NCBI GenBank assembly: GCA_965223155.1 | Contig: CBDCVR010000014.1 | Location: forward strand, 224,001 to 288,000 | DNA length: 64,000 nucleotides | DNA from: Candidatus Multivoradales bacterium | Lineage (GTDB): Bacteria > Acidobacteriota > Thermoanaerobaculia > Multivoradales > JAHEKO01 | Direction of reading: 5' to 3' | Part shown: positions 23,194-53,280 of the stretch, one piece after another | How the letters are laid out: every line of letters starts with the position of its first letter | Position numbering within the stretch: position 1 is the stretch's first letter | Notes under the pieces: generated by a model | Databases searched by the model: none | Seen by the model: only the letters and a program-made list of their open reading frames with translations | Told to the model about the DNA's origin: nothing | Position numbers and translations under genes: made by a program

Positions 23194-23208
23194 GCAAGCT
23201 GGGAGAAG
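23194..23208 (+). promoter_or_regulatory. Island operator motif, copy 1
   Basis: GCAAGCTGGGAGAAG; TAGCTT 20 bp downstream (23229-23234). Confidence 0.72.
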
Positions 23209-23305
23209 CCCCGCGTCTTGAGCGGCGCTAGCTTCGGTGCAAGCAACAACTCGGTCCTAGCGGGCGGGCCCGCTCGCAGCCCACTGCAACCAGAGGAGCC
23301 ATGTC

Positions 23306-24163
23306 ATGAGGCAACCCAGCGCAGCAATCATCGCCACGGCTATCGCCGGCTTTCTCGTGATCTGCCCGGCCGGCACCACCCAGGCTGCCGAGGACGATCA
23401 TCTCAAGGCAGCAATCGAAGTCATCGACGAGTTCCAGACGCCGGGGCTCGAGGCGGAGCTTTCCGGCATCTATCCGCACCCGACCGACGAGAATCTCTAC
23501 TATGTCGTCGCCAACCTGAAGCCGCCGTATCGATACGGCCAGGAGCCCAAGTTGCCCGAGGAGTACCGGGGTAAGCTGCTGACCGTGGACCGGGATGGCA
23601 CGGTCCTGCGCGCGGTCCCGATCGCCGACGACGACTTCGGCGGGCTGGCCTTCGCCGAGGGGCGCCTCTATGTCGCTCTTACCAACGGCGCCGAGATCCG
23701 GCGGATCGATCCCGAGACCGGCGCCACCGACCAAAGGATTCCGCTACCTTCGCCGGCGGGCGGCCTCGGCTACGACGCCGAGCGCGGCGTGATGATCGCC
23801 CAGCTCTACGTCGGCCACCCGAATCTGGCCGTCATCAACCTCGAGACGGGCTCCGTTGTCGAAACGCTCTGGTCGGACGAGAGTGCCATGGGCCTGGCCA
23901 AGATCGACGGCGACTGGCTCTGCACCTGGGCCAGCGGCTGGGATCCCGGGTCCTTCAGCGAGTTGCGCGTACTGGACCAGTCCACGGGCAAAGTGCGGTC
24001 CCGCGTCAAGCTGGACGGGGTCCACTCCTCGCTCGCGCCCGCCCGGCTGGAATCCGGCCGCGCCGCCTTCATGAGCCTGGTGACGACGGACAGCTATACC
24101 GGTGAGACCGTGATCCGCCGGTACGGCTACGTCGGCGAAACGCGGACGGCGGCACTCAACTAG
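23306..24163 (+). CDS. Secreted hypothetical protein, probable beta-propeller
   Basis: Signal peptide; GLAF/GLGYD/GLA blade-like repeats. Confidence 0.7.
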   Translation: MRQPSAAIIATAIAGFLVICPAGTTQAAEDDHLKAAIEVIDEFQTPGLEAELSGIYPHPTDENLYYVVANLKPPYRYGQEPKLPEEYRGKLLTVDRDGTVLRAVPIADDDFGGLAFAEGRLYVALTNGAEIRRIDPETGATDQRIPLPSPAGGLGYDAERGVMIAQLYVGHPNLAVINLETGSVVETLWSDESAMGLAKIDGDWLCTWASGWDPGSFSELRVLDQSTGKVRSRVKLDGVHSSLAPARLESGRAAFMSLVTTDSYTGETVIRRYGYVGETRTAALN

Positions 24164-24172
24164 CACCGCTCC

Positions 24173-26023
24173 ATGGCGGCCGCCCCGGAACCTCGTCCCG
24201 ACCCTGGGCGCCGGGTGGCTCCGGCCCCGGCCATCGCCCTGGTCGCGCTCCTGGCCGCCGGGCCGGCGGTCACCCCGGCCGGCGCCGCCGAGCCGGCCCA
24301 GGGTGCTCTTCCCGCTCCCGAGCAGGCAGCGGTCGCCGCCCTGAACTTCGCACCGCAGCCCCTCGATCCGGCCTTCAACCGCGCCGAGCTCACGCGCCGC
24401 CTGCGCGAAGCGCACGCCCGTGGCGCCCGCTACCTGGTAACCCCCGAGCTCGGCCTCACCGGCGAGTTCGCCGAGGGGATGACAGCCGAAGCGCTCCGCG
24501 ATCTGGCCGAGCCGATTCCCGGACCGACGACCGAGCATTTCGCGCGACTGGCCCGCGAGCTCGGCGCCTGGATCGGCATCTCGCTACTGGAGACACGGCC
24601 CGACTCTCCCAACTCCTCGGACGTTTACATCACCGCGGTGCTGCTGGACGACTCCGGCCGAACCGCCGCCCTTCATCGCCGGATCATGGTCCGGCCGGAC
24701 GGACCCGAAGGCCTGGTAACGAGAGGGGACTACCGGGCGATTCTGGACACCGTGCCCGACGGCGACCTGCGCCTCGGCATTCTCTCGGGCAGCGACGTGC
24801 AAGTCGGCGTCGCCCGGCTGGCCGACCGCGGAGCGGACCTGATCCTCATCTGCTCGTCCCCGGGAGCCCTCGCCGGCGGTGACGGCCTGGCCCGCCGCTA
24901 CTCGGTCCAGCTTGCCAGCGCCGAGCGGACCGCGCCCGGTACAGGGGTCCGCGCCGGCGGAATCTTCTCCCGCAGCGGCGGCTACCGTCGCCCAAGCGAC
25001 GACGGGCTCGCCCTGGCACCCCTCGACATGGTCCCCCACCGCTGGCGTCCCGCTTCCGCGCTGGGCCTGCCGGCCTCGGTCCCGGTTCCCGCCCACGAGC
25101 CCGCGTCGGCTCTGCTCCGGGAGCTTGGCCGCAGGCTGTTCTTCGACCCCGGCATGTCACGTAGCGGCACGGTCTCGTGCGCGACCTGCCATGAGCCCGA
25201 GCGCGCCTTCACCAACGGTTCGGCCAAGGGCCAGGGAGTCTTCGGGCGGCATACGAAGCGCAACGTGCCGACGCTTCTCAACGTCGCCTTCAAGCCGCTG
25301 CTGCGCTGGGACGGCTACGCCTCCATGCTCGAGAACTTCGCCAAGTACCCCTTGAGCGGATACAACGAAATGAGCTTTCACTATCTGGACGAGGTGGTTG
25401 ACTACGTCAAGTCCCGGCCCGTCTACGTGCGGGCACTGCTCGAGACCATGGACCTGGCTCGAGCCGACGAGATCGAGTTCGAGCACGTCGCCCGCGCTCT
25501 GGCTACCTTCCAGCGCAGCCTCGTTTCCGGCAACTCGGCCTTTGACCGGTACCAGTACGGCGGCGACCACGCGGCCCTGTCGCCCAGCGCCGCGCGCGGA
25601 CTCGCACTCTTCCGCGGCAAGGCCGACTGCGAGCGCTGCCACCAAATCGGTCCGAACTACGCGCTCTTCATGGATCTCGACTACCACTTCCTGGGCATCG
25701 GCTATGAAGAGAGTCCAGGCGCCAGCCCCGACATCGGGCTGGGCTCGATCAGCACCAATGACCTCGCCGGTCTGTTCCAGACCCCATCCCTACGCGACGT
25801 CGCCCGCACGGCGCCGTACATGCACGACGGCAGCATCGGCACACTCGAAGACGTGATCGAGTTCTTCGACCGGGGCGGCACTCCCGCACCCGGCAGGCCG
25901 GTCGAGCTCAAGCCGCTCGGGCTGAGCGCGGCCGAGAAGCGGGATCTCGTGGAGTTCCTTCGCTCGCTCGACGGCGACTGGGACTACGGAGCGTCCGCGG
26001 GATCCCGGACCGCCGCCCGCTAG
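24173..26023 (+). CDS. Fusion of a degenerate carbon-nitrogen hydrolase domain and a diheme cytochrome c peroxidase (MauG/bCcP family)
   Basis: N-terminal LVTPE...AEPIPGPTT...LARELG. C-terminal LGRRLFFDP, SCATCH, RNVPTL, CERCH, FQTPSLRDVARTAPYMHDGS. Confidence 0.85.
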   Translation: MAAAPEPRPDPGRRVAPAPAIALVALLAAGPAVTPAGAAEPAQGALPAPEQAAVAALNFAPQPLDPAFNRAELTRRLREAHARGARYLVTPELGLTGEFAEGMTAEALRDLAEPIPGPTTEHFARLARELGAWIGISLLETRPDSPNSSDVYITAVLLDDSGRTAALHRRIMVRPDGPEGLVTRGDYRAILDTVPDGDLRLGILSGSDVQVGVARLADRGADLILICSSPGALAGGDGLARRYSVQLASAERTAPGTGVRAGGIFSRSGGYRRPSDDGLALAPLDMVPHRWRPASALGLPASVPVPAHEPASALLRELGRRLFFDPGMSRSGTVSCATCHEPERAFTNGSAKGQGVFGRHTKRNVPTLLNVAFKPLLRWDGYASMLENFAKYPLSGYNEMSFHYLDEVVDYVKSRPVYVRALLETMDLARADEIEFEHVARALATFQRSLVSGNSAFDRYQYGGDHAALSPSAARGLALFRGKADCERCHQIGPNYALFMDLDYHFLGIGYEESPGASPDIGLGSISTNDLAGLFQTPSLRDVARTAPYMHDGSIGTLEDVIEFFDRGGTPAPGRPVELKPLGLSAAEKRDLVEFLRSLDGDWDYGASAGSRTAAR

Positions 26024-26085
26024 CCCGGCCATCTCCTGCCGTCCCGCCAGCTCGGGCAGCTCGGCGTGCGCCCCGCTGCGTCCCG

Positions 26086-26125: not shown

Positions 26126-26146
26126 CTCCCTGGAGCCGGGGGCCGT

Positions 26147-26545
26147 CTATCCGACAGGGTCCGTCCGAGAGGTGAAGAGGCCGCGGTAGGCGTCCCGCCA
26201 GTGCCAGAGGAGTGCCAGCTCTAGAACGGCCAGAACCAAAGCGAGTACCAGGCCATTCGGATCCAGCAGCACGTGGTAGAGGACGATGTTGAGAAGAATC
26301 GGCAGCAGCACGAGGAGCGCCACCGGAACCCAGAAACCGGCCAACAACATCAGTCCCGCGACGGCCTCGAGGGTCTTGAGCACCGGGAAGAAGTAGCCGG
26401 TGGCGAAGAGCGCTTCCAGAAACGCCATCCCCTCCGCGCTGGGCTCGCCCATCGGCGGCAGGAAATGCAGGAAGAAGTCGATGCCGAAGACGGTAAAGCC
26501 CAACCCCAGAAGCAGCCGGCAAAGCAAAGCGATCGTGCGATTCAC
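26147..26545 (-). CDS. DoxX-family membrane protein
   Basis: RLLLGL.F..FG, TGYFFP, LE...G.MLL; four TM segments. Confidence 0.8.
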   Translation of the reverse strand: MNRTIALLCRLLLGLGFTVFGIDFFLHFLPPMGEPSAEGMAFLEALFATGYFFPVLKTLEAVAGLMLLAGFWVPVALLVLLPILLNIVLYHVLLDPNGLVLALVLAVLELALLWHWRDAYRGLFTSRTDPVG

Positions 26546-26647: not shown

Positions 26648-26662
26648 CTTCTCCCAAATTGG
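26648..26662 (-). promoter_or_regulatory. Island operator motif, copy 2
   Basis: CCAATTTGGGAGAAG on the minus strand; TAGGCT 21 bp downstream (26626-26621), ahead of the DoxX gene. Confidence 0.68.
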
Positions 26663-26692: not shown

Positions 26693-27538
26693 CTAGTCCC
26701 GGGCCCGAAGGCCCCGTAGCCAGAGGTACGCCAGCTCTTCGTCCCGAAACGCCGCTTCGTAGACGGAGCCGACCTCCAGCCAGCCCGCCACGTCGTCTAC
26801 CGCTTCGTCTCCGTCGCGCCGCCGGTCCAAGCCGGCCAAGACTCCGGCCAAGCGTTCGGAGAACTCGACCGCCACACCGGTCAAGTCCTCGCTCCTGACG
26901 TTCGAGAAACCCGCCTCGGCCAGCAGCTCGAGGTACCGCCGGGCCGGCAGCAAGCTCGCCATCCCGTCGGTCTCCCACGCGTAGCGAAGCATGCGGTCGG
27001 TTGCCGCCTCGCCGGCTGCGATGACGACGATTTCCAGCCGGCCGCCCGGGAGAAGAGCCCGCCACGCGGCGTCCAGAACCGCCTCCGGGTCGGCGGCGAG
27101 CATCAGCGTGTCGATCGATAGCACCACCTGGTACCGGTTCTCGGTCCTGTAGCTCTCCATGTCCCCCAGCTCGAAGCTCAGCCTGCCGCGCGGGGCCTCG
27201 GGGACTCGCTCCCGCATCGCCAGGGCCATCTCGTGCTGGTTCCGGTTGATCTCGACGCCGGTCGCCCGGCAGCCGTAGGTCTCGGCCAGGTAGCGACACG
27301 CCGCGCCGCGGCCGCTACCCAGCTCCAGGACCGAGGTCTGCGGCCCGATCCGAGCCGCCCGGGCAATCCGGTCGAGCAGTCGCCTGCCGCCCATATTGAG
27401 AAACTCCCAGCCCTCGTGGGTTCCCTCGTAGACGCCTTGGCGCCACACCGGCGACGAGGTGTCGTCGTAGACCTCCCGGTTCTTGCGCCGCGTCTCGATG
27501 CGGGCTCGTGGAACGGCGTCGAGCGCGCTCGTCGTCAC
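26693..27538 (-). CDS. Class I SAM-dependent methyltransferase
   Basis: VLELGSGRG, TGVEI, LLPGGRL. Confidence 0.85.
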   Translation of the reverse strand: MTTSALDAVPRARIETRRKNREVYDDTSSPVWRQGVYEGTHEGWEFLNMGGRRLLDRIARAARIGPQTSVLELGSGRGAACRYLAETYGCRATGVEINRNQHEMALAMRERVPEAPRGRLSFELGDMESYRTENRYQVVLSIDTLMLAADPEAVLDAAWRALLPGGRLEIVVIAAGEAATDRMLRYAWETDGMASLLPARRYLELLAEAGFSNVRSEDLTGVAVEFSERLAGVLAGLDRRRDGDEAVDDVAGWLEVGSVYEAAFRDEELAYLWLRGLRARD

Positions 27539-28131
27539 TTCGGAGATTCCGAATCGTAGGCGTGACGCGGCTCCCAGCCGTCGGCGCCGGCGTCGAGCAG
27601 ATCCAGAAGATGCCAGACCCCGCAGAAGTCGTCCCCGGGGCCGAAGCTAGCGCCCCCGACTCGCAGGATCCGTCCATCGTCCCTGGCCAGCGTGGTCACT
27701 CCGGGAAGCGGCGCGCCGTTGTCCTCCTCGAAGCCCAGATCGCGGGTGAAACTGGATCCACGAGCCGAAGCCAGCTCGAAGCCCCAGCCCCGGGACTCGG
27801 CGAAGGCTTCCTGCGCCTCGGCGTCGTCGGGGGAGACCAGGACCACCGCCGAGCGGTTCTCGAGATGCTCCAGCACACCATTGAGGCCGTCCGCCCACAA
27901 GGTGCAATAGGAACAGCCCTTGCCCATGTTGTGAATCACGATCAAGTCCCGCCGCCCACCGAAAAGGTCCGACAAGCGGACCTGCCGCCCGCCCGAACGC
28001 TCCAGCACGTAGTCCTCGATCTCGTAGGGCTCGCGCTCGCGACGGAGCGCGGCTAGCCGCTCCTTGACTTCGACCAGCTCGTCTTCGGCCGCGACGATGT
28101 GTCGTTCCAGATCCTGGTTTCGTTCGCTCAT
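27535..28131 (-). CDS. DUF899-family thioredoxin-like protein
   Basis: VRLSDLFGGRRDLIV.H, CSYC, F..SRGW; start MSERNQD with GGAAG upstream. Confidence 0.8.
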   Translation of the reverse strand: MSERNQDLERHIVAAEDELVEVKERLAALRREREPYEIEDYVLERSGGRQVRLSDLFGGRRDLIVIHNMGKGCSYCTLWADGLNGVLEHLENRSAVVLVSPDDAEAQEAFAESRGWGFELASARGSSFTRDLGFEEDNGAPLPGVTTLARDDGRILRVGGASFGPGDDFCGVWHLLDLLDAGADGWEPRHAYDSESPK

Positions 28132-28162
28132 GTCTTCCTCCGAACTTCGAAGTACCGATTCT

Positions 28163-29485
28163 TCACGACGCCTTCGCCATCCCGGCACGCCGGTATCTGG
28201 CCGTGATCAGAAAAGGCCGGGCCTCCGCCTGGAAATCGCATCCAGGATACAACTGCTTGCAGATGCCGTCGAAAACCACCATCGCCAACACAGTCATGAT
28301 GAACTTGGTCGAGCCGCGAACTCCAAAGCGCCGCTGGGTGTCCATCAGCTGGAAGACGAAACGCGTGATCTCGAAATCTCGCGATCTGAGGCTCGCGTAC
28401 TCAGCGACCAGCTCGCCGATGGCCCGGTCGAAGGCGGCGCGGCGGTGATCCGGCGGACGCGTGCTGGCGGTCTCCCAGACGATCCGGGCGCATTCCCGCC
28501 CCTGGTTGTTGACCAGACCGAAGAAGAAGTCCACGAAGTCGTCCTGGTCTTCCTCGGTGAGCTCGGCCACGAGGCCGGCGTCGAGCAAGACCAGCTCGCC
28601 ACCGGCCCGAAGAAAGACATTGCCCGGATGGAGGTCGGCGTGAACCAGCCCGTCCAGGAAGATCATCTTGTAGAGCGCGCGCAGCCCGGCCAGGGCGATG
28701 TCGCGGCGACGTTCGGAGGAAAGACCGGCAGCGCCGACCGGCTCCAGATCCTCCATGTACTCCATGACCAGCACGGAGCCGGTACACAAACCCTCGATCG
28801 GAGCGGGCACGCAGATCCGGTCGGCCAGCTCGAAGCTGGCACGGAGCCGGCTCAAGCTCTTCCGCTCCCGCTCGAAATCGAGCTGGTGGCGGATGGGACC
28901 CTCCAGCTCGCGCACCAGTTCGGCCAGGGGCAGGGCGCCGAGACCGGGCAGCCGTCCAGCAACCGCCGCCATCCGGCGCAGGAGGCGGAAGTCCCGATCC
29001 ACGGTGCGACGGATTCCGGGCCGGCGGATCTTGATCGCCACCGGGCGACCGTCCTCCAGCCAGCCGCGATGGACCTGAGCCACGCTCGCGCTCGCCACCG
29101 GCGAGCGTTCGACCCGCGAAACGCGGGCGGCGGCGGCTCCCAGCCCGGCATGCATCGCGGCCAGGATCGGCGCCGCCTCGACCGGCGCCACGTCTTGGCG
29201 CAGCCGGCCGAGGGGCTCGACCAGATCCGGCGGCAAGAGATCCGGCCGCGAGCTCAAGATCTGGCCGATCTTGATGTAGGTGGGTCCAAGGCGCTCACAC
29301 AGCCGGCTCAGAGCCTCACCTGCCAGACGCCTTCGGTTCACGCGGGTACCGCTCAGACGCGCCCTGGCCAAGGAAGCCAGCAGGCGCGCGGCCGTGCCTG
29401 CCGATGCAATCCAGATCTCGAGCGCGCGCGCCGCCTCGGCTCCGATACCGATTTTCCGCCGCTTCAAGATTGCCTCGTCATGCAA
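28163..29485 (-). CDS. ABC1/UbiB (AarF) atypical kinase
   Basis: LGPTYIKIGQILSSRPDLLP, ASASVAQVH, VAIKIRRP, HADLHPGN, LLDAG. Confidence 0.9.
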   Translation of the reverse strand: MHDEAILKRRKIGIGAEAARALEIWIASAGTAARLLASLARARLSGTRVNRRRLAGEALSRLCERLGPTYIKIGQILSSRPDLLPPDLVEPLGRLRQDVAPVEAAPILAAMHAGLGAAAARVSRVERSPVASASVAQVHRGWLEDGRPVAIKIRRPGIRRTVDRDFRLLRRMAAVAGRLPGLGALPLAELVRELEGPIRHQLDFERERKSLSRLRASFELADRICVPAPIEGLCTGSVLVMEYMEDLEPVGAAGLSSERRRDIALAGLRALYKMIFLDGLVHADLHPGNVFLRAGGELVLLDAGLVAELTEEDQDDFVDFFFGLVNNQGRECARIVWETASTRPPDHRRAAFDRAIGELVAEYASLRSRDFEITRFVFQLMDTQRRFGVRGSTKFIMTVLAMVVFDGICKQLYPGCDFQAEARPFLITARYRRAGMAKAS

Positions 29486-29523: not shown

Positions 29524-31380
29524 TCAGCGCCTCCCCAGATCCACCGGACTCGTCGTCGGGCCGTCCGAGATCCCTCCGGAAGCGGCTACGGTGACCGCTG
29601 GCCCAGCCGGCAGCGCCAGGCCGGCAAGGCGTGGAGACTCGACCGCCGGCCGGCGCAGGGGCGAGCCGCGGCCGAACACGTTCTCGGCCAGCCAGTACTC
29701 GACCGAGTGCTCGATCACCGTGTAGACCACGCGCTCACCATCGCGCGACACCGAGGGCCAGAGCGCGTCGTCCCCGGCGGCGCTCAGATACTGGATCGCC
29801 CCGGACGGCTGCCGCTCTACGACGCGCCGGTTGCCGGCCTCGTCCCGGACGCTCCAGACCACCGTGCCGCCGCGTCCCTCGCGCGGAAAGTTCTTCTCGA
29901 TCCAGTCCGGACCCGCCAGCGTCGTCATTGACGAGTCGGCAAGGTTCATCTTGAGGACGGACCAGGTCCAGTCGCCGCCGCGGGTCGACATGAAGAGCAC
30001 CGAGCGCCCGCCGTCGGCCCAGGACGGCGACTCGTCGAACCAGCCGCCGCCGGTGATCCGCGTGACCTCCCGGGTCTCGACGTCGACCGTGTACAAGCTG
30101 GCCTCGTGCGCCTCGGTGTCGGCCTGAAACAGAATCCGCCGGCCGTCCGGTGCCCAATCGATGGGGCCGTCCATGCCCCGCAGCCCGTCCGTTCCGGCCG
30201 TCAACTGGAGGAGGCCCGAGCCGTCGGCTTCCATGAGCCCGATCTCCCACCGCGCATGGGTCTTTCCGGCAAAGGCGAGGTGATCGCCGCTCGGAGACCA
30301 TCGCGGGAAACAGGCCTGGCCGGCGCCGGTGTTCAGATCCCGGGTCGCCCCGCTTTCGAGATCGAGCCACCGCAGAACCTTGCGATCCCCCTCGACGGCA
30401 CAGTAGACAAGCTCTTCCCGGCTCGGATGCAAAGTGGCCTGCAAGGGCCAGCGCTCGCCCTCGACCAACGTCCGGGTCTCGCCGGTGGTGCGGTCGAACT
30501 CCTTCACAGCCACGCCGCGTTCCACGAACCGGTGAAACAGCAGCGTGTGGCCCGAGCCCGTCCAGGTCGGCCAGCGGTCGCTGTGAGGTGACTCGGTCAA
30601 CATCCGGACCCGGCCCCCGGTAGCGGGCATGATGGCGATCCCGGACGGCCCCTCGGTGCTTCGCGAGAACGCCGCCCAGTGGCCATCGGACGAGGGAGTC
30701 GGCTTGTAGTCCCAGGCCGAGCCCAGGGTGAGCGGCGCCATCTCGCCGTCCAGCCACACCCGCAGAACGTCGCCCGACCCGAGGTCGTAGCGGTGGCACA
30801 GGAGCGACTCTCCACTGGGATCGAAGGCACAGGCGCCGGCACGGCCGGACTCGCGGGTGATCCTGCGCGGTTGGCCGCCGCCCGCCGGCACCACGAAGTA
30901 GTCGCGCTGGCCCCAAGGCCCGCCTGTAAAGACGACCTCGCGGCCGTCGGGCGACCAGGCCGGGTACTCGTCCTCGAATTCCGAGTCGGTGAGCTGCGAC
31001 AGCTCATCCGAGGCCAGGTTGAGGATCCAGACGTTCTTGCCGCCGTCCCGGGTCGAGGTAAAGACCAAGCGTTCGCCGTCCGGCGACCAGCGCGCCTCGA
31101 AATCGTCGGCCGGGTGGTCGGTGACCTGCTCCCAGCTAGACGTTTCGAGATCGAAAACCCAGAGATCCCAGTGACCCGCCCGGCGCGAGGTGGTCACGAA
31201 CCGCCGCCCGTCGGGCGCGATGGTGGCATCACCGCCACCGTGCCGGTCCACGGCCACCCGCGACAGCCGGAACTCATCCGTGCCCTTTGCGCACGCACCC
31301 AAGACGGCCCAGCCGGAGACCAGAGAGACCAGAGCGGTTCCGGCCGAGAGCCTCGCCAGGACCTGCCGCCACCTCCTCAT
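29524..31380 (-). CDS. TolB-like (PD40 repeat) periplasmic lipoprotein
   Basis: Repeated WSPDG/WAPDG motifs; LGAC lipobox; ATG 31380 overlaps the MFS stop. Confidence 0.85.
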   Translation of the reverse strand: MRRWRQVLARLSAGTALVSLVSGWAVLGACAKGTDEFRLSRVAVDRHGGGDATIAPDGRRFVTTSRRAGHWDLWVFDLETSSWEQVTDHPADDFEARWSPDGERLVFTSTRDGGKNVWILNLASDELSQLTDSEFEDEYPAWSPDGREVVFTGGPWGQRDYFVVPAGGGQPRRITRESGRAGACAFDPSGESLLCHRYDLGSGDVLRVWLDGEMAPLTLGSAWDYKPTPSSDGHWAAFSRSTEGPSGIAIMPATGGRVRMLTESPHSDRWPTWTGSGHTLLFHRFVERGVAVKEFDRTTGETRTLVEGERWPLQATLHPSREELVYCAVEGDRKVLRWLDLESGATRDLNTGAGQACFPRWSPSGDHLAFAGKTHARWEIGLMEADGSGLLQLTAGTDGLRGMDGPIDWAPDGRRILFQADTEAHEASLYTVDVETREVTRITGGGWFDESPSWADGGRSVLFMSTRGGDWTWSVLKMNLADSSMTTLAGPDWIEKNFPREGRGGTVVWSVRDEAGNRRVVERQPSGAIQYLSAAGDDALWPSVSRDGERVVYTVIEHSVEYWLAENVFGRGSPLRRPAVESPRLAGLALPAGPAVTVAASGGISDGPTTSPVDLGRR

Positions 31381-32627
31381 CGCGTCGCCCTCAGCAGGCG
31401 GCCGCCTGAAGTGAAAAAGGAGGCGCCGGTTACAGCCACGTAGGCCAGACCGGCGGCAAGAAAGATGGTCTCGACCGCGACCGCGCCGCGCAGCAGCACG
31501 GCAACCGCCGTTGCCAGGGCCACCGCCAGGCCCTCGCTCTGGGTAACGACCGAGAAGACCCGCCCCAGGAACTGCCCTTCGACCAGGGTCTGCAGGAGCG
31601 AGTAGAAGGGCACGACGATCGCGGAGACGCTGATGCCCCACACGAACATGAGGGCGGTCGAGATCCACGGACTCCCCAGAAGAGCGTAAACCACCATGAC
31701 CAAACCCTCGGAGAGCAGCGCGAAGAGCAGGGTCGGTCCAGCCCCGAGCCGCCGCATCCAGGCCGGGACCACGAAGGCGCCGAGGGCGGCGCCGGCGCCG
31801 GTCGCCCCGATCTGCCAGGAGAGCAGATGCTCGGAGGACCCCAGCACCTCGCGAATGAAGAAGGGCGCCAGTGGCAGCCAAAGCCCCGCGCATAGCAGGC
31901 TGACGAAGAACAGGAACGCTACCTGGCGCACCAGCCGATCGCCGCCGACGTAGGACCAGCCGGCCACCAGCGACCGCACCGGAGAGCTCTCGCGGGCACT
32001 TCGCTCCTTCGTCCCTCGCCTGTCCCGTCTTCGGGGAAGACTCAGGCCGGCGGTCAGCAGAGCGGCTACCAGAAAGCAGGCCGCATCCACGACCAGCGTG
32101 GCCGTAAGACCCGTCCAGAGCAAGAGCTCCGCGCCCAGAATCGGACCGACGATGAGAAGCAGGTTCGAACTGATCTGCTCGACGCCGTTGGCCCGTGGCA
32201 GTTGTCCGGACTCCACCACGAGCGGGACCGAGGCCGCCTTGGCCGGTTGGAAGAACGCCGCCGCCACCGAATGCAGGGCCGCGGCCACGAAAATCACCGG
32301 CAAGGTGGGCCAGGTGAGAATCGTCACCGCCAGAACCATCCGGGCCAGCGCCGAGCCCGCCAGGACCGCCCGCTTGCTCACCCGGTCCACGAGCACGCCG
32401 GCGAAGGGCGCCGCCAGCACTCCGGGCAGAGCCTCGAGCAACACCAGGCCCGCCAGGACCGCCACCGAGTCCCGCTCGCGAAAAAGATAGAGCACCAGCG
32501 CGACTCGGCTGATCTGGGTGCCGACGACCGAGAAGGCCTCGGCCAGCCACAGTCGGCGGAAGGAAGCGTTGGCGAGCACCTGCCGCCAGCCGCGATCGGC
32601 CCAGGCCTCACTCGCGGACGGCGTCAC
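31377..32627 (-). CDS. MFS transporter (macrolide-efflux/DHA3-like)
   Basis: FRRLWLA, GVLVDRVSKR, FFQPA, LGRVFS; about 12 TM helices. Confidence 0.9.
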   Translation of the reverse strand: MTPSASEAWADRGWRQVLANASFRRLWLAEAFSVVGTQISRVALVLYLFRERDSVAVLAGLVLLEALPGVLAAPFAGVLVDRVSKRAVLAGSALARMVLAVTILTWPTLPVIFVAAALHSVAAAFFQPAKAASVPLVVESGQLPRANGVEQISSNLLLIVGPILGAELLLWTGLTATLVVDAACFLVAALLTAGLSLPRRRDRRGTKERSARESSPVRSLVAGWSYVGGDRLVRQVAFLFFVSLLCAGLWLPLAPFFIREVLGSSEHLLSWQIGATGAGAALGAFVVPAWMRRLGAGPTLLFALLSEGLVMVVYALLGSPWISTALMFVWGISVSAIVVPFYSLLQTLVEGQFLGRVFSVVTQSEGLAVALATAVAVLLRGAVAVETIFLAAGLAYVAVTGASFFTSGGRLLRATR

Positions 32628-33933: not shown

Positions 33934-34186
33934 AGTGTCCTCACTTTCGTTGAGTTCGGGCGCTCCCGGTGCCGGTCCCTGTTGCCGTGGCATCGACGAC
34001 GCTCTTCACAAGCGGCGCCGAGAGCTTTCGTACATCTAGTTCGATTTCCATCCAGGCCGCGGTCGCCGTCTGAATCCTGCCGGGTCTCAGCCTGTCCAAA
34101 CAACGATCGCAACTGTCCAAGCGCCTCTCGGTGCTCTCCTTTCTCGAGGTAACGCCGTATAGATATCGTCGGCTCCGCTCTGGGGG

Positions 34187-34201
34187 CTTCTCCTGTATTG
34201 C
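34187..34201 (-). promoter_or_regulatory. Island operator motif, copy 3
   Basis: GCAATACAGGAGAAG on the minus strand, upstream of the HEAT-MFS-TolB-ABC1 operon. Confidence 0.7.
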
Positions 34202-37841: not shown

Positions 37842-37853
37842 CGCAACCCCGGA

Positions 37854-38960: not shown

Positions 38961-38975
38961 CTACTCCGAGGTTGC
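38961..38975 (-). promoter_or_regulatory. Island operator motif, copy 4
   Basis: GCAACCTCGGAGTAG on the minus strand, ~100 bp upstream of paralog A. Confidence 0.6.
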
Positions 38976-39080: not shown

Positions 39081-39095
39081 GCAACCTGGGAGAAG
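39081..39095 (+). promoter_or_regulatory. Island operator motif, copy 5
   Basis: GCAACCTGGGAGAAG; TAGCGT 20 bp downstream (39116-39121). Confidence 0.75.
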
Positions 39096-39264
39096 CTGCC
39101 GGTAGGGCAACGTCGTAGCGTCACGAACAATCCAACCCGCAAGGCTCACCGGGTCCCCGGTCGTCGACCGGTGAACGAGCCGATCCGGCGGCGAGGAGAC
39201 GTTAGACAAGCTGGGCGATATACCCAGAACGCAAGAAAAAGATTCTTCCAGGAAGGAGTCAGCG

Positions 39265-46770: not shown

Positions 46771-46785
46771 GCAGTACCGGAGAAG
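46771..46785 (+). promoter_or_regulatory. Island operator motif, copy 6
   Basis: TTA-GCAGTACCGGAGAAG; TTCAAT 20 bp downstream. Confidence 0.72.
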
Positions 46786-46862
46786 ACGTTTTCCGGGCCC
46801 TGGGCTTCAATGACAGACACCCTCAAAGCTCTGGCTTCATTACGGACTCAAGGAGACGAACA

Positions 46863-47822
46863 ATGAAAGGCTACCTACGCGCTGCTTCGATCTGTTTGCT
46901 GGCAACGGTCTTCGCGACCGGGTGCCAAAGTCTCGATTCAGGATCCACGGTGGAGAGCCGCCCGAGCGCGAGCGAGGCGGTCGGCACCCTCGCCACCATC
47001 TTGAACGTGGAGCTCGAAGCCTGTGAATCTCGGATCCCGGCCGTCGCCCAAGAGAGCGTCACGACGTTTTCGGAGGATCGGATCAAGAAGACGCTCCACG
47101 GCGTTTGGAAGGGCCGGGTCTCCGGCGAGTACGACGAAAAGTTTCTTGCCGAGGACGGGTACCTGAACGTCGACTACTACATGGTGGTGGATACCGAACG
47201 CTCCGAGGTTCTCGTGATCGAACAGTTCTCGGACGAACGTTCAGCACCCGAGGCTTCCGCCGAGCTCCGCGCTGCCGGCAAGCTGCCGGTCTGGTCGTAT
47301 CTGATGTGCGGCAAGGAACAGTACAAGCCAGCCCACCCGCGGCAGATCCACGAGTTCCAGAAGGTTTCGAACGACACCGACGACGCCCGCGGCCTGCTGG
47401 GGAACTCGACCGGGCTCCGCATCGCCGATGCCGACTTCAAGGAACGCGGCCTGGTGATCTCCGACGCCTGGGAACAGCTCGTCGCCGGTCAGTACTTCGA
47501 CAACCGGCGCTTCCCGGCCTACGCCGGGGGCCTGTTCAAGCCCTTCGAGATCCGAAACAAGGTCAACGACCGGGGCGTCGGCGTCTTCGAGATGCGCTTC
47601 GACACCGAGCTGCGCGGCGGCGGCGGCACCGCCGCCGAGTTCGAGTCGGGCGTCCCCATCCACGGCTGGGAGACGGGCCAGTTCGTCGGCGTCTCGACCG
47701 GATCAGGAGACTTCTTGATCGCCTCGGCCAGCAATGGGGCCGAGTGGAAGAAGGTCTCCACCTCCGGCGGCATCATCGACGTGTTCTTCGAGAAAGTCGT
47801 CATCGGCCCGCTGGCCGAGTGA
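46863..47822 (+). CDS. Unknown lipoprotein, paralog B
   Basis: RBS AAGGAG, ATG 46863, ATGC lipobox; shares motif blocks with 37854-38864. Confidence 0.8.
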   Translation: MKGYLRAASICLLATVFATGCQSLDSGSTVESRPSASEAVGTLATILNVELEACESRIPAVAQESVTTFSEDRIKKTLHGVWKGRVSGEYDEKFLAEDGYLNVDYYMVVDTERSEVLVIEQFSDERSAPEASAELRAAGKLPVWSYLMCGKEQYKPAHPRQIHEFQKVSNDTDDARGLLGNSTGLRIADADFKERGLVISDAWEQLVAGQYFDNRRFPAYAGGLFKPFEIRNKVNDRGVGVFEMRFDTELRGGGGTAAEFESGVPIHGWETGQFVGVSTGSGDFLIASASNGAEWKKVSTSGGIIDVFFEKVVIGPLAE

Positions 47823-50269
47823 CCCGGACGCCGCCCGCCGGCCTTCTCCCGAACTCCCGACTCCGGCCCCACGGGCGGCTCATCCGCTCGTGGGGCGGCG
47901 TCGTAACGCTCGCGCTCGCGCTGCCGGCCGGAGCGCTTCTCGGCATCGCCTCGCCTCGCGCGGGACTCGCTACCGAGTCCCCACTCGACCTTCGCCGCGG
48001 TCGGGAGCTCTTCGAGACCACGATCCGGCCTCTCTTCTCGCGCCACTGCATCGAGTGTCACGGTAGCGCCAAGGCTCGCTCCGGTCTTGACCTCTCGACG
48101 CGCGAGACCTTGCTCACCGGCGGCGACCATGGTCCTTCCGTGGTGCCCGGAGCGCCGGATGCGAGCCCGGTTCTCGAGTACCTTCGCCACCGGGCCGAGC
48201 CGTTCATGCCGCCCGAGCGGCCACCTCTTCCCGAAACGGCGATCGAGGCCCTGGCCGACTGGATCCGGCTGGGCGCGCCCTACGGCAGCCGCCTGGGAAC
48301 GGCGGGGCCGTCTCCGGCAGGGTCCGGTGATCCCCTCGCCGGTCTGCCCGACGCCGAGCTCCCCGCGGGCTCTCTTGCCTCCGATGCCTCGGCTGTCTCC
48401 GTTGTCTCTGATGGTTCCAAGACCTCGGATACCCCCTGGGCCTTCGCGCCGCTTGCCAACCATCCCGACGGCACCACCCTTGACGGCCTGGTGGCGACCG
48501 GCTGGGCCGAGCGCGGCGCGACGCCGGCGCCCGAAGTCCCGAAGGCCGTGCTCGCCCGGCGCCTCCACTTCGACACCATTGGCCTGCCTCCGGCCCCAGA
48601 TGACCTGGCCGCCTTTCTCGCCGACGACTCCCCGGGAGCCTATGAGGCACTCGTGGACCGTCTCCTGGCCAGCCCCCACTTCGGAGAGCGATGGGCGCGC
48701 CACTGGCTGGACGTCGCGCGTTTCGCCGAGAGCCACGGCTTCGAGCACGACTACGACCGGGCCGGGGCGTTTCACTACCGCGACTTCGTCATTCGAGCCT
48801 TCAACGCCGACATGCCTTTCGACCGTTTCGTCCGCTGGCAGCTCGCCGGCGACGAGCTCGCACCCGAAAATTCTTTGGCTCTCGTGGCCACCGGCTTCTT
48901 AGCCGCCGGCGTCTATCCCACCCAGCTCACCCTGGCCGACGCCGAGAGGATCCGCTACGACGCGATGGACGACATGCTGGCGACGACCGGTGTCGCTCTG
49001 CTCGCCACGACCATCGGCTGCGCCAGGTGCCATGACCACAAGTACGACCCGATCTCGGCCGACGAGTACTACGCGATGTTGAGCGCCTTTACGACCACGA
49101 TCCGGAGCGAGATCGCGGTGGACCTGCCGGCAGGGCCGGTGCCCGCCGCGTCCGTCGCCGCCGATCCCGGGGATCTCGACGGTGCGAGTCCGGGGGCTCC
49201 CGGCACGCGGGCTCCGACCAGGATCCTGATCGCCAGCGAAGGGCCGCATCTGCGGCCCCTGCCGCTGCACAAAAGCAACCGCTCGATCCCGGACTTCTAT
49301 CCCGCGACCTACCGGCTCCAGAACGGAGATCCCGCAAGCAAGCTGGGCGAGGCCCGCCTGGGCTTCCTCAGCGGCTTGACTCGTAGCCCGAACCTCGGAC
49401 CGTGGCGCGCTCCCTCCGCCGACGCCAGGACCTCAGGGCGTCGGGCTGCCCTCGCCCGCTGGATCACGGACACCGAAGCGGGAGCCGGACATCTGCTGGC
49501 CCGGGTCATCGTCAACCGCGTCTGGCAGCACTACTTTGGGCGCGGCATCGTGGCCACGCCTAACGATTTCGGCGCCCAGGGGGCTCGGCCCACCCACCCC
49601 GAGCTGCTCGACTTCCTGGCCCGGCAGCTCATCGACTCCGGCTGGCGGCTGAAGCCGATCCACAAGCTGGTCCTGATGAGCCGGCTCTACCGCCTGGGGC
49701 CGCATCCCGACCGACCGGGTCCGGGCTCGAGCTCCGAGCCGGAAGCCGGCCGCGAGGCCGAATCGGACCCCGACCACGCGCATCTGTGCCACCGTCACCC
49801 CCGGCGGCTGGAGGCCGAAGCCATCCGCGACGCGGCCCTGGCGGTTTCGGGGCTCCTCGATCGGAGCCTGTACGGCCCGGGGACCCTCGACGAGGCCGGG
49901 CGGCGGCGGAGTCTCTACTTCACCGTTAAACGCAGCCGGCTCGTTCCCAGCATGCAGATCCTGGGCTGGCCGGACACCTTGACCAGCCTCGGACACAGGA
50001 CCGTGACCACCAGCCCGAGCCAAGCTCTGCTGATGTTGAACCATCCGGCCTTCCGCGGCATGGCCCGGGGGTTCGCCGAGCGGATCGCAGCCAGTGCCGA
50101 CGTCATCGGCACCGCCTTCCTGACCGCCTTCTCGCGCCCGCCCTCGGCGCGCGAGCGGGCCTTGGCCGAGGACTTTCTTGGAGGCGCCGGCGGGGACGAG
50201 ATCCCGGATGCCCTGGTCGACTTCTGCGCCGCCCTCCTGGCCTCGAACGAGTTCGTCTATGTCGACTAG
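47819..50269 (+). CDS. Planctomycete cytochrome c / DUF1549 (PSD1) / DUF1553 protein
   Basis: CIECH, HFGERWARHWLDVARFAES, CARCHDHKYDPI, ARVIVNRVWQHYFGRG, PTHPELLD, RRLEAEAIRD. Confidence 0.9.
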   Translation: MTRTPPAGLLPNSRLRPHGRLIRSWGGVVTLALALPAGALLGIASPRAGLATESPLDLRRGRELFETTIRPLFSRHCIECHGSAKARSGLDLSTRETLLTGGDHGPSVVPGAPDASPVLEYLRHRAEPFMPPERPPLPETAIEALADWIRLGAPYGSRLGTAGPSPAGSGDPLAGLPDAELPAGSLASDASAVSVVSDGSKTSDTPWAFAPLANHPDGTTLDGLVATGWAERGATPAPEVPKAVLARRLHFDTIGLPPAPDDLAAFLADDSPGAYEALVDRLLASPHFGERWARHWLDVARFAESHGFEHDYDRAGAFHYRDFVIRAFNADMPFDRFVRWQLAGDELAPENSLALVATGFLAAGVYPTQLTLADAERIRYDAMDDMLATTGVALLATTIGCARCHDHKYDPISADEYYAMLSAFTTTIRSEIAVDLPAGPVPAASVAADPGDLDGASPGAPGTRAPTRILIASEGPHLRPLPLHKSNRSIPDFYPATYRLQNGDPASKLGEARLGFLSGLTRSPNLGPWRAPSADARTSGRRAALARWITDTEAGAGHLLARVIVNRVWQHYFGRGIVATPNDFGAQGARPTHPELLDFLARQLIDSGWRLKPIHKLVLMSRLYRLGPHPDRPGPGSSSEPEAGREAESDPDHAHLCHRHPRRLEAEAIRDAALAVSGLLDRSLYGPGTLDEAGRRRSLYFTVKRSRLVPSMQILGWPDTLTSLGHRTVTTSPSQALLMLNHPAFRGMARGFAERIAASADVIGTAFLTAFSRPPSARERALAEDFLGGAGGDEIPDALVDFCAALLASNEFVYVD

Positions 50270-51779
50270 GCAGGATCCCGCCGGCGAGCGGCACGAGCAC
50301 TGCGGCCGGATCGCGCCGACCTTCACCCGCCGGGAGGCCCTACGCCTGGCGGGCGGCGGCATGGGCATGCTGGCGCTCAACACCCTCCTTGCCCAATCCG
50401 GCCTGGCCACCCCCGGCCTGGCCACCCCCGGCTCGGCCACACCCGGCTCGGCCGTCGCGGCCCGGCGCCCGGCCGGGTCGCGGAATTGGTCCGCGCGCGC
50501 GGATTCGGTGATTTGGCTCTTCATGAACGGCGGACCGAGCCATCTCGACACCTTCGACTACAAGCCTGCTCTAGCCCGGGCCACCGGTCAGACGCTCGCC
50601 GGCTTCGACAACGCCACCGCCTTCTTCGACCAGCAGGTAGGGCCGCTCCTCGGATCACCCTTCCCTTTCCGGCAGCACGGTGAGAGCGGCGCCTGGGTCT
50701 CGTCCCTCTTCCCCCATCTCGCCCGGCAAGTGGACAAGATCGCGTTTCTCAAGTCCTTTCGAACCAGGACGAACAACCACAGTCCCGCCATGTTCATGGC
50801 CAACACCGGCGTGCCGCGCATGGGCAGACCGTGCGTCGGAAGCTGGGTGACGTACGGTCTGGGCACCGAGAATCGAAACCTGCCGGCATTCGTGGTCATG
50901 AGCGACCCGCTGGACCGGGGCCTGCCCAAAGGCCACGCCGCGAACTGGAGCAACGGCTTCCTGCCCGGCGCCTACCAGGGGGCCTGGCTCCAGCCGAAGG
51001 GGGCGCCGATCGCCAATCTCGATCGCCCGGCCGGCCAAAGCGACCGGCGCCAGCGGCGTCAGCTCGACCTCTTGCAGAAGCTCAACGCCCAGCACCATCG
51101 CCGGCGGCCCTTCGAACCGGACCTGGCGGCGCGGATCGAGAGCTTCGAGCTCGCCTACCGGATGCAGAGCGAAGCGCCCGACTGCTTCGAGCTCGACGGC
51201 GAGCCCGACTCCATCCACGAGCTCTACGGCACTCGGGACGAGCGCTGCGCCCACTTCGGCCGCCAGTGCCTGCTGGCGCGGCGCTTGGTGGAACGGGGCG
51301 TTCGCTTCGTCCAGATCTACTCCGGCGGCACCGCCAACTCGCGCAGCTGGGACGGTCACAACGACATCCGCAAGAACCACTCCCAGTTCGCCGGCGAGAC
51401 CGATCGTCCGATCGCCGGCCTGCTCGCGGATCTGGATCAGCGGGGACTGCTGGATCGAACCCTGGTGGTCTGGGGCGGCGAGTTCGGCCGCCTGCCGGTC
51501 TCCCAGCTCTCCGACGGAGAGCCCACCGGTCGAGACCACAACCCCCACGCCGGCTGCTACTGGATGGCCGGTGGCGGCATCCGCGGCGGAGTCTCGTACG
51601 GCGAAACCGATGAGCTCGGCCACAAGGCGGTTACCGATCCGATCGAGATCCACGACATCCACGCCACGCTCCTGCATCTGCTGGGCTTGGATCACGAACG
51701 CCTGACCTATCTCCACAACGGCCGGCGCTATCGCCTGACCGACGTCGCCGGCCGGGTGCTCCGCGAGGTCTTGGCCTGA
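50259..51779 (+). CDS. DUF1501 protein with Tat signal
   Basis: TRREAL, LFMNGGPSHLDTFDYKP, LLARRLVERGVRFVQ, WDGH, GEFGR, RDHNP, RLTDVAG. Confidence 0.92.
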   Translation: MSTRQDPAGERHEHCGRIAPTFTRREALRLAGGGMGMLALNTLLAQSGLATPGLATPGSATPGSAVAARRPAGSRNWSARADSVIWLFMNGGPSHLDTFDYKPALARATGQTLAGFDNATAFFDQQVGPLLGSPFPFRQHGESGAWVSSLFPHLARQVDKIAFLKSFRTRTNNHSPAMFMANTGVPRMGRPCVGSWVTYGLGTENRNLPAFVVMSDPLDRGLPKGHAANWSNGFLPGAYQGAWLQPKGAPIANLDRPAGQSDRRQRRQLDLLQKLNAQHHRRRPFEPDLAARIESFELAYRMQSEAPDCFELDGEPDSIHELYGTRDERCAHFGRQCLLARRLVERGVRFVQIYSGGTANSRSWDGHNDIRKNHSQFAGETDRPIAGLLADLDQRGLLDRTLVVWGGEFGRLPVSQLSDGEPTGRDHNPHAGCYWMAGGGIRGGVSYGETDELGHKAVTDPIEIHDIHATLLHLLGLDHERLTYLHNGRRYRLTDVAGRVLREVLA

Positions 51780-53266
51780 CCCCGAGCGGAGCGAGCGCCA
51801 GGGCGCAGGGCGTCACTGGAAGCTCCGAACGCTCCGGGGCGGACGCCAGCGGTCACGACAGACCCGACGGAGGCCGCCCTCAGCCCGGCCGGTCGCGAGC
51901 CGACGTCTTCGACACCCTCGACGCCACCGGCCTGGCCCGAGGCATCGCCCGCGGAGAGTTCTCGAGCTCCGAGCTCGTGGAACACTACCTCGGCCGGATT
52001 CGACAGCGAAACGGCGACCTCCAAGCGTTCGTCAAGGTCTTCGAGCGGCGTGCCCAACGCAGCGCCGGCCGCAAGGACCGGAAGATCCGGGGCAACCCGA
52101 CTCTGGACGCGTTCCACGGCGTCCCGATCGGCGTCAAAGACCTCAACCTGGTCCGCGCCTCCGTGGCCCGATTCGGCTCGCGGGCGGTACCGCCGATTCC
52201 ATCTCCCATCGACGACCGTACGGTCTCCCGGCTGCGCGCGGCCGGCTTCGTCCTGTTGGGGAAGACCGCCACCAGCGAGCTCGGTGCCATGCCTGTGGTC
52301 GAGCCCCGCACTCATCCTCCGACCCGCAATCCCCACGACCTCGACCGGTCGGCGGGCGGCTCCAGCGGGGGATCCGCCACGGCGGTGGCCGCGGGCCTGC
52401 TACCCATCGCCCACGGCAACGACGGCGGCGGCTCGATCCGCATCCCCGCCGCGTTCTGCGGCGTCTTCGGCTTCAAGCCTTCCCGCGGCCTCCTGGCCAA
52501 CCCCTACGGTCTGAACCCGACCCGATGCCTGTACACCTGCGGCGCCATCGCCCGTTCCGCCCGCGACCTACGCAACCTCACCGGCGCCATGCTGCCGGCG
52601 GGCCAGGAGCCCCTGGCGCGGAACGGATCCCGCCACCGCCGGCTGGTCATCCATCAAGTCGTGACCAGCGCCGTCGCCGCCACCACGAGCGAGGCGGTGG
52701 CCGCGGTCGAAGCCATCGGCCGGGTTCTGGCAGACCTCGGCCACGCGGTCCGAGCCCAGCCCCGGTTCGAAGGAGCCTTCGAGGACTTCCTTCCCCTCTA
52801 CCAGCACCTCCTGGCCGGGTTCAGACTGCTCCCGAAGCGCCGCCTGGAGCCAACGACCGCCTGGCTCTGTCGGGAGGGCCGCCGGATCCCCGAGACTGAG
52901 GCGAGCCGCCGGCACAGCGCCCTCGAACGAGACATCGACACCTGGCTGGGCGCGGCCGACATCGTGGTGAGTCCGACCGTCGGCTCGCCGCCACCCGCCA
53001 TCGGCGCCTGGAGCGCTCTAGCGCCCGGCGAAGCCTTCTTCGAAGCCGCCCGGCTCGGCGCCTACACCGCCCTCTACAACGTCGCCGGCATGCCGGCGGC
53101 CACGATTCCCGCCGGCTTCGATCGTTCCGGCTTGCCCCTCGGAGTCCAGGTCGCCGGCCGCCGGGGCACCGATGCCCTCGTCCTGGATCTGGCCGAGACC
53201 CTGGCCGACGCCGGCGCGATCCCGCTGCTGGCGCCGCTTGCCAGGGTCGCCGGCGAACAGACTTAG
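51776..53266 (+). CDS. Amidase (amidase-signature family); start uncertain
   Basis: [31 protein letters not shown]. Family-like sequence ([15 protein letters not shown]) extends upstream of the first canonical start at 51977; in-frame CTG at 51776. Confidence 0.88.
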
Positions 53267-53280
53267 CAGTCTGGGAGAAG
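53266..53280 (+). promoter_or_regulatory. Island operator motif, copy 7
   Basis: TTA-GCAGTCTGGGAGAAG; CAGAGT 21 bp downstream. Confidence 0.72.

Follow-up and report, generated by a model that had tools for sequence, protein, structure and literature searches.

A GCAA-N4-GGAGAAG box as predicted operator of a cluster-encoded AraC/XylS regulator in an enediyne-type gene island of a Multivoradales bacterium

The window analysed here is a 64,000-nucleotide (nt) stretch of the genome of a Candidatus Multivoradales bacterium (GCA_965223155.1, contig CBDCVR010000014.1; C14:224001–288000 of our genome G000, which has 4,004,543 bases in 15 contigs). It carries part of an enediyne-type gene cluster built around an iterative polyketide synthase (PKS) gene, pksE, and a gene for a 304-amino-acid (aa) AraC/XylS regulator. 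About eight promoters of this cluster carry a 15-bp box, GCAR-N4-GGAGAAG, the sites of which are rare and clustered. Judging from sequence, the box is very probably the operator of the cluster-encoded regulator and defines a set of class II activator-dependent promoters. On the best-supported reading the system is of a known kind, in which a cluster-situated AraC protein controls a class II regulon in the manner of the marbox; to this the comparison adds that, in different phyla, box and regulator accompany the enediyne-type cassette as a pair. We infer binding of the box by the regulator, the activating sign, a monomeric mode, co-expression of the operons and a ligand for the C-terminal domain. 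Positions beyond 64,000 are window-equivalent coordinates.

Rarity of the box and geometry of its promoters

The pattern GCARNNNNGGAGAAG occurs exactly five times in the window (boxes 1, 3, 5, 6 and 7; Table 1), whereas 0.07 copies are expected from dinucleotide-preserving shuffles, none of which (0 of 100) reached five. At one mismatch the count rises to 11, against 3.2 expected, and two of the additional sites are intergenic (boxes 2 and 4). The one-mismatch matches at 10469 (−), 27041 (+), 44033 (−) and 47843 (−) lie within coding sequence and were taken as chance. A first-pass annotation of this DNA had quoted seven sites, and all seven were recovered at their positions and on their strands, five exact and two with one mismatch; its remark that the first 23 kb held no full match was also borne out, with no exact match in 1–23193. 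The genome-wide enrichment that it had proposed as a check is present as well: eight exact copies exist on both strands of the whole genome, and six of them fall within 46 kb (C14:247194–293509, equivalent to 23194–69509). The two copies outside the island are at C13:459825, inside an open reading frame (ORF), and at C14:369315. The latter lies in 3 kb or more of sequence where no ORF has the typical high G+C content at third codon positions (GC3).

A position weight matrix (PWM) was assessed by leaving out one site at a time, building the matrix from seven sites and scoring the eighth. The held-out sites ranked within the top 4 to 63 of ~8 million genome positions every time. The extended consensus, T-n-GCAA-tyT-n-GGAGAAG-c, describes a single asymmetric 15–16-bp site that reads in the direction of transcription. 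Conservation is absent from the flanks of the boxes, so the box is not a dispersed repeat, and no Rfam family reached its gathering score anywhere in the window. A possible ninth site at 72136 (−), GCGATTTCGGAGAAAT, with a score of 9.6 bits and TAGACT 19 nt on, was rejected, as it deviates at two positions that never vary among the 51 foreign sites described below.

All eight boxes are intergenic and have the same orientation as the next gene, as the first-pass annotation had stated for its seven. Its range of distances to the start codon (40–255 nt) was wider than the 41–193 nt from box end obtained with the start codons called here, and the value of 255 fits an alternative ATG of the HEAT gene. 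In seven of the eight sites 20 or 21 nt separate the box from a −10-like hexamer, and the five such hexamers that had been named (TAGCTT, TAGGCT, TAGCGT, TTCAAT and CAGAGT) are all present at this spacing. The corresponding −35 positions, assuming a 17-nt spacer, read AAGCnn, and a sigma-70 consensus scan of 38–54 kb found no good −35/−10 pair at any box. Because the box ends 20–21 nt before the −10 hexamer (taken as −12 to −7), its centre lies near −40. Class II promoters, in the definition taken from PMC12052159, have a forward site centred between −36 and −55 and a weak or absent −35 element; the boxes show each of these features relative to predicted start sites. The layout is thus predicted to be that of a class II activator site, without a −35 consensus and in fixed phase with the −10 hexamer.

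Box 8 has a second neighbour, a 128-aa AraC gene on the other side of the same intergenic region (69038–69424). The gene has a plausible primary-sigma-like promoter of its own, TTGGCG-16-TAAGCT, at L001:5450–5472 (−), equivalent to 69450–69472, and the box lies reversed, ~73 nt upstream of the start predicted for this promoter. Box 8 could serve as a putative class I marbox-type site for the 128-aa AraC gene.

The AraC regulator and its association with the box

The 304-aa protein belongs to the AraC/XylS family, with 83.8 bits against HTH_18 (cut-off 33.6) and 54.1 bits against HTH_AraC (cut-off 26.6). Its DNA-binding domain, with two helix-turn-helix (HTH) motifs, is N-terminal (residues ~25–140) and is followed by a C-terminal domain (~160–290); the AlphaFold model (predicted local distance difference test, pLDDT, 87.8) consists correspondingly of a seven-helix DNA-binding domain and a beta-sandwich. 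The modelled N-terminal domain superposes on MarA, AdpA, SoxS and RamA with template modelling (TM) scores of ~0.7–0.9, normalised to the target, and the closest solved relatives by sequence are a Salmonella AraC-type protein (7r3w), Rob, RamA, MarA and SoxS. When aligned with Rob, the two recognition helices read SPFHLNRVF against SKWHLQRMF and SLGTFTRRF against SQQTFTRAF, and across 43 family members both show little or no variation. The scores against the NCBIfam equivalogs stay below the cut-offs for RobA (46 bits versus 380), RamA (49 versus 180), SoxS (38 versus 174) and MarA (31 versus 202), and the database homologues all bear generic names. The C-terminal sandwich, modelled alone (~150 residues; pLDDT 83.4), found nothing among solved structures at E ≤ 0.001 with Foldseek, a VIA search gave a best Z of only 6.8, to pilotins and Ig-like domains, and it matches no Pfam family, including the GyrI-like one. 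In the C-terminal half (58058–58522) the sandwich is followed by a helix, and a DPP motif is invariant.

Forty relatives, ranging from the same genus to the same order, were searched for homologues of this protein (E ≤ 1e-20; the tallies include an unpublished genome, G005, from which no individual claim is drawn). Only three, G037, G038 and G040, encode one (42–45% identity), and none was found in the four same-genus genomes. All three carry boxes with a −10-like hexamer at similar spacing, 0.1–27 kb from the AraC gene, within the 55–75 kb scanned per homologue (Table 1). Some of these boxes form divergent pairs, and G037 has a second such pair at C62:1413 (−)/1457 (+). The start-to-start spacing is 44 nt in both G037 pairs, 52 nt in G038 and 120 nt in G000 (38961 (−)/39081 (+)). 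Counts of the exact 16-mer are uninformative alone, as the 37 relatives without an AraC homologue yield 71 matches versus 197 for reversed-pattern controls; only G000 (5 versus 4) and G037 (10 versus 3) stand out, with 4 versus 2 in G038 and 5 versus 5 in G040.

The orthologous targets connect the operons of the island with one another. Behind the G037 box at 42927 (+) runs a single array in which g23306, the MauG fusion, the HEAT protein, the MFS transporter and the PD40 protein each have an orthologue, at 50%, 46%, 63%, 47% and 41% identity, respectively; in G000 these genes are divided between the box 1 and box 3 operons. In Bryobacterales bacterium F-183 (L040), pksE, thioesterase, AraC, P450, SnoaL, g23306 and g26147 run in one direction, and the run continues with the MauG fusion, SnoaL, methyltransferase, HEAT and ABC1 kinase genes; a single box, which scores 15.0 bits and has TAACAT 20 nt on, lies ahead of a SnoaL gene, as in G000. 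Because the orthologues are contiguous in G037 and F-183, the unrelated-looking operons of G000 are parts of one conserved unit.

To extend the comparison beyond the order, a scan of one genome per species with an alignment of four AraC proteins gave 80 homologue loci (1.27 Mb) from Acidobacteriota, Chloroflexota, Cyanobacteria, Actinomycetota, Verrucomicrobiota, Planctomycetota, Proteobacteria and Deinococcota, with hosts that include Ktedonobacteria, Microseira, Micromonospora, Opitutae, Schlesneria, Sphingomonadales and Trueperaceae. At a threshold of 15 bits the PWM found 52 matches at these loci versus 7 with the reversed PWM, and at least 14 matches lie directly past the AraC stop codon on the same strand. 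The −10 signal is reproduced: of 51 foreign sites, 19 have TANNNT at offset 20 and 7 have it at offset 21, with a maximum of 3 at any other offset from 5 to 44. A composite search (PWM ≥8 bits plus TANNNT at 20/21) gave 37 matches versus 0 in the control. Outside the matrix, the foreign sites favour T at −2 and T-C/T-T at positions 5–7.

The genes that follow the foreign boxes recur. They include orthologues of the HEAT gene (L039, L059) and of SnoaL (L035, L040), the g69627 family (L060, L089 and G000 itself), glyoxalases, DUF1702 (L080, L085) and DUF6073 (L082, L083). Another is a 10-member family of secreted proteins without a Pfam match (10 cases in 8 loci). Chloroflexota, Trueperaceae and Actinomycetota have two-gene modules made up of a short AraC gene, the box GCAGTTTCGGAGAAGC and a glyoxalase/VOC gene. 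The AraC reading frame of L107 and that of L110 each contain the box at the 3′ end, and because the same 16-mer is read in different frames at the two loci, the constraint is on the DNA and not on the peptide. In Micromonospora sp. SL1-18 (G041, 6.6 Mb), all five exact copies of GCAA-N4-GGAGAAG are on the 84.7-kb contig that encodes the AraC homologue (reversed control, 1). The PWM adds a sixth box, every box stands at an operon start, and the one at 70152 (−) precedes the DUF1702/UnbV/E5/pksE/thioesterase genes.

Tandem repetition of box-headed units was seen at two of the loci. Units of ~1 kb follow one another in L091, from a Thermoanaerobaculia metagenome-assembled genome (6721, 7809, 8834 and 9860), and in L095 (10931 and 11962), and most of them encode a paralogous secreted protein of ~275–330 aa without a Pfam family. 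In L091 the AraC gene comes after the last box, 9860 (+), and a weak match in L095 (9980 (+), 15.9 bits) lies just before the AraC gene of that locus.

The enediyne-type island and its box-marked operons

An enediyne-type PKS cassette is defined by five genes, E3/DUF1702, E4/UnbV, E5, PKSE and the E10 thioesterase. All five are present and adjacent here (Table 1), which identifies the cassette as enediyne-type by gene content. The same cassette recurs in more than 20 loci, and thioesterase orthologues flank pksE in 27 of the 80 homologue loci. The box-marked span of G000 extends from 23.2 to 70.2 kb. To its left lie a pstSCAB-like phosphate ABC transporter operon and a monofunctional transglycosylase gene (18987–23171, +), which mark ordinary chromosome beside the island, while orthologues of 23306–26023 lie inside the G037 and F-183 clusters; the left border that had been proposed at ~23.2 kb is reasonable in the light of both. 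The first base of box 7 is the last base of the amidase stop codon.

Table 1 Boxes of the island, the units that follow them, the genes of the core operon and boxes at related loci
Feature	Position	Strand	Details
Box 1, GCAAGCTGGGAGAAG	23194–23208	+	exact; TAGCTT 20 nt on (23229–23234)
Box 1 unit: 285-aa unknown gene	23306–24163		
Box 1 unit: CN_hydrolase/MauG di-haem peroxidase fusion	24173–26023		
Box 2, CCAATTTGGGAGAAG	26648–26662	−	one mismatch, G1 to C; TAGGCT 21 nt on
Box 2 unit: 132-aa unknown gene	26147–26545		
Box 3, GCAATACAGGAGAAG	34187–34201	−	exact; TATCTA 21 nt on
Box 3 array: HEAT-repeat protein	32743–33993	−	
Box 3 array: MFS	31377–32627	−	
Box 3 array: PD40 propeller	29524 to ~31340	−	
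Box 3 array: ABC1/UbiB kinase	28163–29485	−	
Box 3 array: DUF899	27535–28188	−	
Box 3 array: methyltransferase	26693–27538	−	
Box 4, GCAACCTCGGAGTAG	38961–38975	−	one mismatch, A13 to T; divergent from box 5
Box 4 downstream gene: unknown	37854–38864/38942		
Box 5, GCAACCTGGGAGAAG	39081–39095	+	exact; TAGCGT 20 nt on (39116–39121)
Box 5 unit: SnoaL_3 protein	39265–39891		
Box 5 unit: NHL-repeat protein	39941–41884		
Box 6, GCAGTACCGGAGAAG	46771–46785	+	exact; TTCAAT 20 nt on (46806–46811)
Box 6 array: 319-aa unknown gene	46863–47822		
Box 6 array: PSCyt1/PSCyt2/PSD1 protein	to 50269		
Box 6 array: DUF1501	50178–51779		
Box 6 array: amidase	51977–53266		
Box 7, GCAGTCTGGGAGAAG	53266–53280	+	exact; CAGAGT 21 nt on (53302–53307)
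Box 7 unit: FeeM-like N-acyl amino acid synthase	53322–54155		
Box 7 unit: RoxA-like cytochrome c	54165–55544		
Box 8	69509	+	exact, 5.5 kb past window end; TACGGT as −10; heads 189-aa gene
DUF1702	67751–68701	−	beyond window; 38% to Micromonospora counterpart
FG-GAP/UnbV (UnbV_ASPIC)	65737 to ~67750	−	beyond window; Pfam
E5-like gene	64850–65725	−	beyond window; 49% to Micromonospora counterpart
pksE-type iterative PKS, KS-AT-KR-DH	58947–64910	−	Pfam; window holds 58947–64000
304-aa AraC/XylS candidate regulator	58058–58972	−	start overlaps pksE stop
4HBT thioesterase	57558–58001	−	follows AraC gene
P450	56101–57561	−	follows AraC gene
SnoaL/DUF4440 protein	55572–56114	−	follows AraC gene
G037 box	C21:42927	+	
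G037 boxes, divergent pair	C21:56058/56102	−/+	
G038 box	C1:818992	+	
G038 boxes, divergent pair	C1:840849/840901	−/+	
G040 box	C3:451704	+	79 nt past AraC stop codon
AraC/glyoxalase module boxes	L107:10353, L110:10332, L111:10422, L113:10398; also L087:2609, L090:10875		

Downstream of box 4, within the island, the gene at 34600–36192 (−) encodes a ClpB/ClpC-like double AAA+ protein of only ~530–620 aa, for which Pfam reports AAA modules alone. At 36617–37853 (−) two frames overlap, both with coding-like GC3 and neither with a Pfam match; they could be two short genes or could result from a frameshift or from an error in sequencing. A 17-nt look-alike of the box at L001 ~4900, upstream of the pksE operon, was dismissed because its internal spacing is wrong and it has no −10 hexamer at the proper distance.

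Mode of action, alternatives and significance

The first-pass annotation had proposed that the pksE-coupled AraC protein acts on dispersed operons by way of an asymmetric site that overlaps the −35 region, and co-occurrence, orthology and class II geometry support such control as a prediction. If the protein behaves like MarA, Rob and RamA, a single molecule would put its two HTH motifs into successive major grooves, one reading GCA and the other GAGAAG, ~10 bp apart. The 3′ end of the box would stand in for the missing −35 hexamer, and the regulator would recruit RNA polymerase with the primary sigma factor. Because the regulator gene lies inside the core operon (DUF1702, UnbV-like, E5-like, pksE, AraC, thioesterase), transcription of the core would supply the activator, which would then turn on at least seven dispersed accessory operons between 23.2 and 70.2 kb. 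Their predicted products would comprise oxidoreductases, a MauG-like peroxidase, MFS export, the ABC1 kinase, SnoaL proteins and the N-acyl synthase. A broader proposal, which we regard as tentative and rather doubtful, is that the AraC clade with the beta-sandwich is bound up with the GCAA-N4-GGAGAAG box in an ancient regulatory module, which has accompanied the enediyne-type PKS cassette across phyla from Acidobacteriota to Micromonospora; the regulator, made from within the core operon, would sense a pathway intermediate and license the operons for tailoring, export and self-protection. The ligand of the sandwich domain is in this proposal a matter of speculation.

Several observations weigh against the assignment of the box to this regulator. 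The E3-E4-E5-pksE operon has no class II box upstream, with nothing of 12 bits or more in the correct orientation at 64.9–69.5 kb. A copy had been predicted ahead of this operon beyond 64 kb, and a copy does exist at 69509 (+), but it points away from the operon and toward the 189-aa gene. The operon starts at a glyoxalase gene (42265, −) and a halogenase-like gene (42415, +) are boxless, with nothing of 9 bits or more upstream, as is also true of the DUF1702-pksE operon, and box 4, the weakest site, lacks a −10-like hexamer at 20/21 nt. Site scores in G000 are circular because the PWM was built from the sites under test; the independent support for the box is the controls, the −10 signal and the orthology. 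Among the loci with full-length homologues, 25 of 63 have a site of 16 bits or more and 38 do not, many of the contigs being short. Ktedonobacteria and Chloroflexia have the variant GCAAGaTaGAAGAAGT only, and five other genomes have 0–2 of their 3–9 exact copies near the AraC locus. In a sample of 400 further actinomycete genomes, 11 had a homologue and ten of these were searched for the exact pattern: G317 has 2 of 6 copies near its AraC gene, and the other nine of the ten have none near it. Within 1.5 kb of the AraC gene, these genomes have only weaker related variants, such as GCAATCTCGGCGATGA. As the association varies in this way among genomes, the regulon is large in G000, G037 and G041 and small or diverged elsewhere. 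The loci were, moreover, picked by the presence of the AraC gene, so another co-inherited factor is formally possible.

Other readings of the box were compared with its assignment as an activator site of the 304-aa AraC protein. The same protein could act in the opposite sense, keeping the accessory operons repressed for as long as it occupied the −35 region, with a ligand bringing about its release: the box overlaps the would-be −35 location and could occlude RNA polymerase, and the C-terminal domain could be the ligand sensor. We consider repression unlikely, given that a −35-like hexamer is absent (AAGCnn at its place, and none good in the consensus scan), that the 20/21-nt phase with the −10 hexamer is as rigid as at class II marbox promoters, and that TnmR7 (PMC9464397) and UcmR7 and SgcR2 (PMC8210685) are described as positive regulators, a parallel to the 304-aa AraC protein that is drawn from their descriptions. 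The conservation of the box and its constant spacing to the hexamer that follows would also suit the −35 element of a cluster-dedicated alternative sigma factor of the extracytoplasmic function (ECF) type. Such a factor is highly improbable here, as none of the 17 Sigma70_r2 matches of the genome falls within C14:224000–304000, the nearest on the contig being at C14:546846. Furthermore, the downstream hexamer TAnnnT is of the primary-sigma type, the spacing of 20–21 nt between box and hexamer exceeds what a −35 hexamer would allow, and the box tracks AraC homologues, including those of the two-gene AraC/glyoxalase modules.

A different DNA-binding protein might read the box instead, either an unlinked factor or the 128-aa AraC protein, which, like MarA, has little beyond its DNA-binding domain and whose gene borders the intergenic region of box 8. 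This we judge very unlikely. Homologues of the 128-aa protein occur in ten relatives (11 loci, 59–42% identity), and none of them has a strong box in the surrounding 1.5 kb; the top score is 16.8 bits (L010), and the locus of the closest homologue (L003) reaches only 9.4. G037 and G038 have box clusters yet no homologue of it (E ≤ 1e-15), and that of G040 lies ~420 kb from the cluster. Compared with the HTH region at the 80 loci, the 128-aa protein shows only 26–40% identity, whereas the 304-aa type shows 31–52%. There is next to no probability, finally, that the boxes arose by chance or through base composition, that they are copies of a dispersed repeat, or that they work at the RNA level, as a transcribed element or a Shine-Dalgarno sequence. 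The GGAG core does resemble a ribosome-binding site, but the boxes lie 41–193 nt ahead of the start codons and most of the genes have a GGAG-like sequence of their own near the start. Chance is opposed by the 0.07 copies expected in shuffles and the low reversed-pattern controls, a repeat by the unconserved flanks and an RNA element by the lack of an Rfam match in the window.

The predicted operator resembles the enteric marbox, 5′-GCAHWWWWTGYYAAA-3′, a 15-nt sequence that a MarA monomer binds in a defined orientation (PMC6900184); class II marbox sites have a forward orientation and overlap the −35 element (PMC6900184 and PMC12052159). The marbox and GCARNNNNGGAGAAG are of equal length and share GCA at positions 1–3, G10, A13 and A14, a purine-rich 3′ half ~10 bp from GCA, the forward orientation and a centre near −40. 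They differ in the 3′ half-site, which is GGAGAAG here and TGYYAAA in the marbox. As with MarA, SoxS, Rob and RamA, one factor would serve many scattered operons, the regulation by the 304-aa protein being predicted in parallel. An N-terminal HTH domain and similar recognition helices are shared with Rob, whereas the C-terminal domain is a beta-sandwich without a GyrI-like Pfam match. In contrast to the MarA-type systems, the targets form a biosynthetic island and not a stress regulon, and the hosts are Acidobacteriota and other non-enteric phyla.

AraC-type regulators have been described within enediyne clusters. UcmR7, related to SgcR2, has homologues conserved among several enediyne clusters, and both proteins are reported there as positive regulators (PMC8210685). 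TnmR7, encoded by the 915-bp tnmR7 gene, is described as essential for tiancimycin production; by quantitative reverse transcription PCR it promotes three tailoring units and not the core PKS, with tnmDFGH, tnmM1M2 and tnmNOPR2 lowered when tnmR7 is deleted, and as the protein was insoluble and its purification failed, binding was not demonstrated (PMC9464397). SgcR2, UcmR7 and TnmR7 resemble the 304-aa regulator, compared by description and not by sequence, in being products of AraC-type genes inside enediyne clusters, and the tnm cluster also has ABC1/UbiB kinase genes, as does the island of G000. Within the openly accessible literature searched, neither an operator for the AraC regulators of enediyne clusters nor the present box was found. 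The Streptomyces antibiotic regulatory proteins (SARPs), cluster-situated activators such as ActII-ORF4 and AfsR, likewise bind sites that overlap the −35 element of several cluster promoters. SARPs have an OmpR-type winged helix and recognise tandem heptamer repeats; the system described here differs from them in its one non-repeated box and its AraC fold.

Enediyne clusters encode some of the most cytotoxic natural products known and are often silent or low-yielding, and production is known to require their AraC-type activators. As a predicted operator, the box could delimit enediyne clusters from sequence and link operons that look unrelated. If the assignment is true, the box would also be a handle for switching on silent related enediyne clusters. 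Class II activation of the marbox type, for which the stress regulons of enteric bacteria are the main known examples, would thereby extend to biosynthetic islands in poorly studied phyla.

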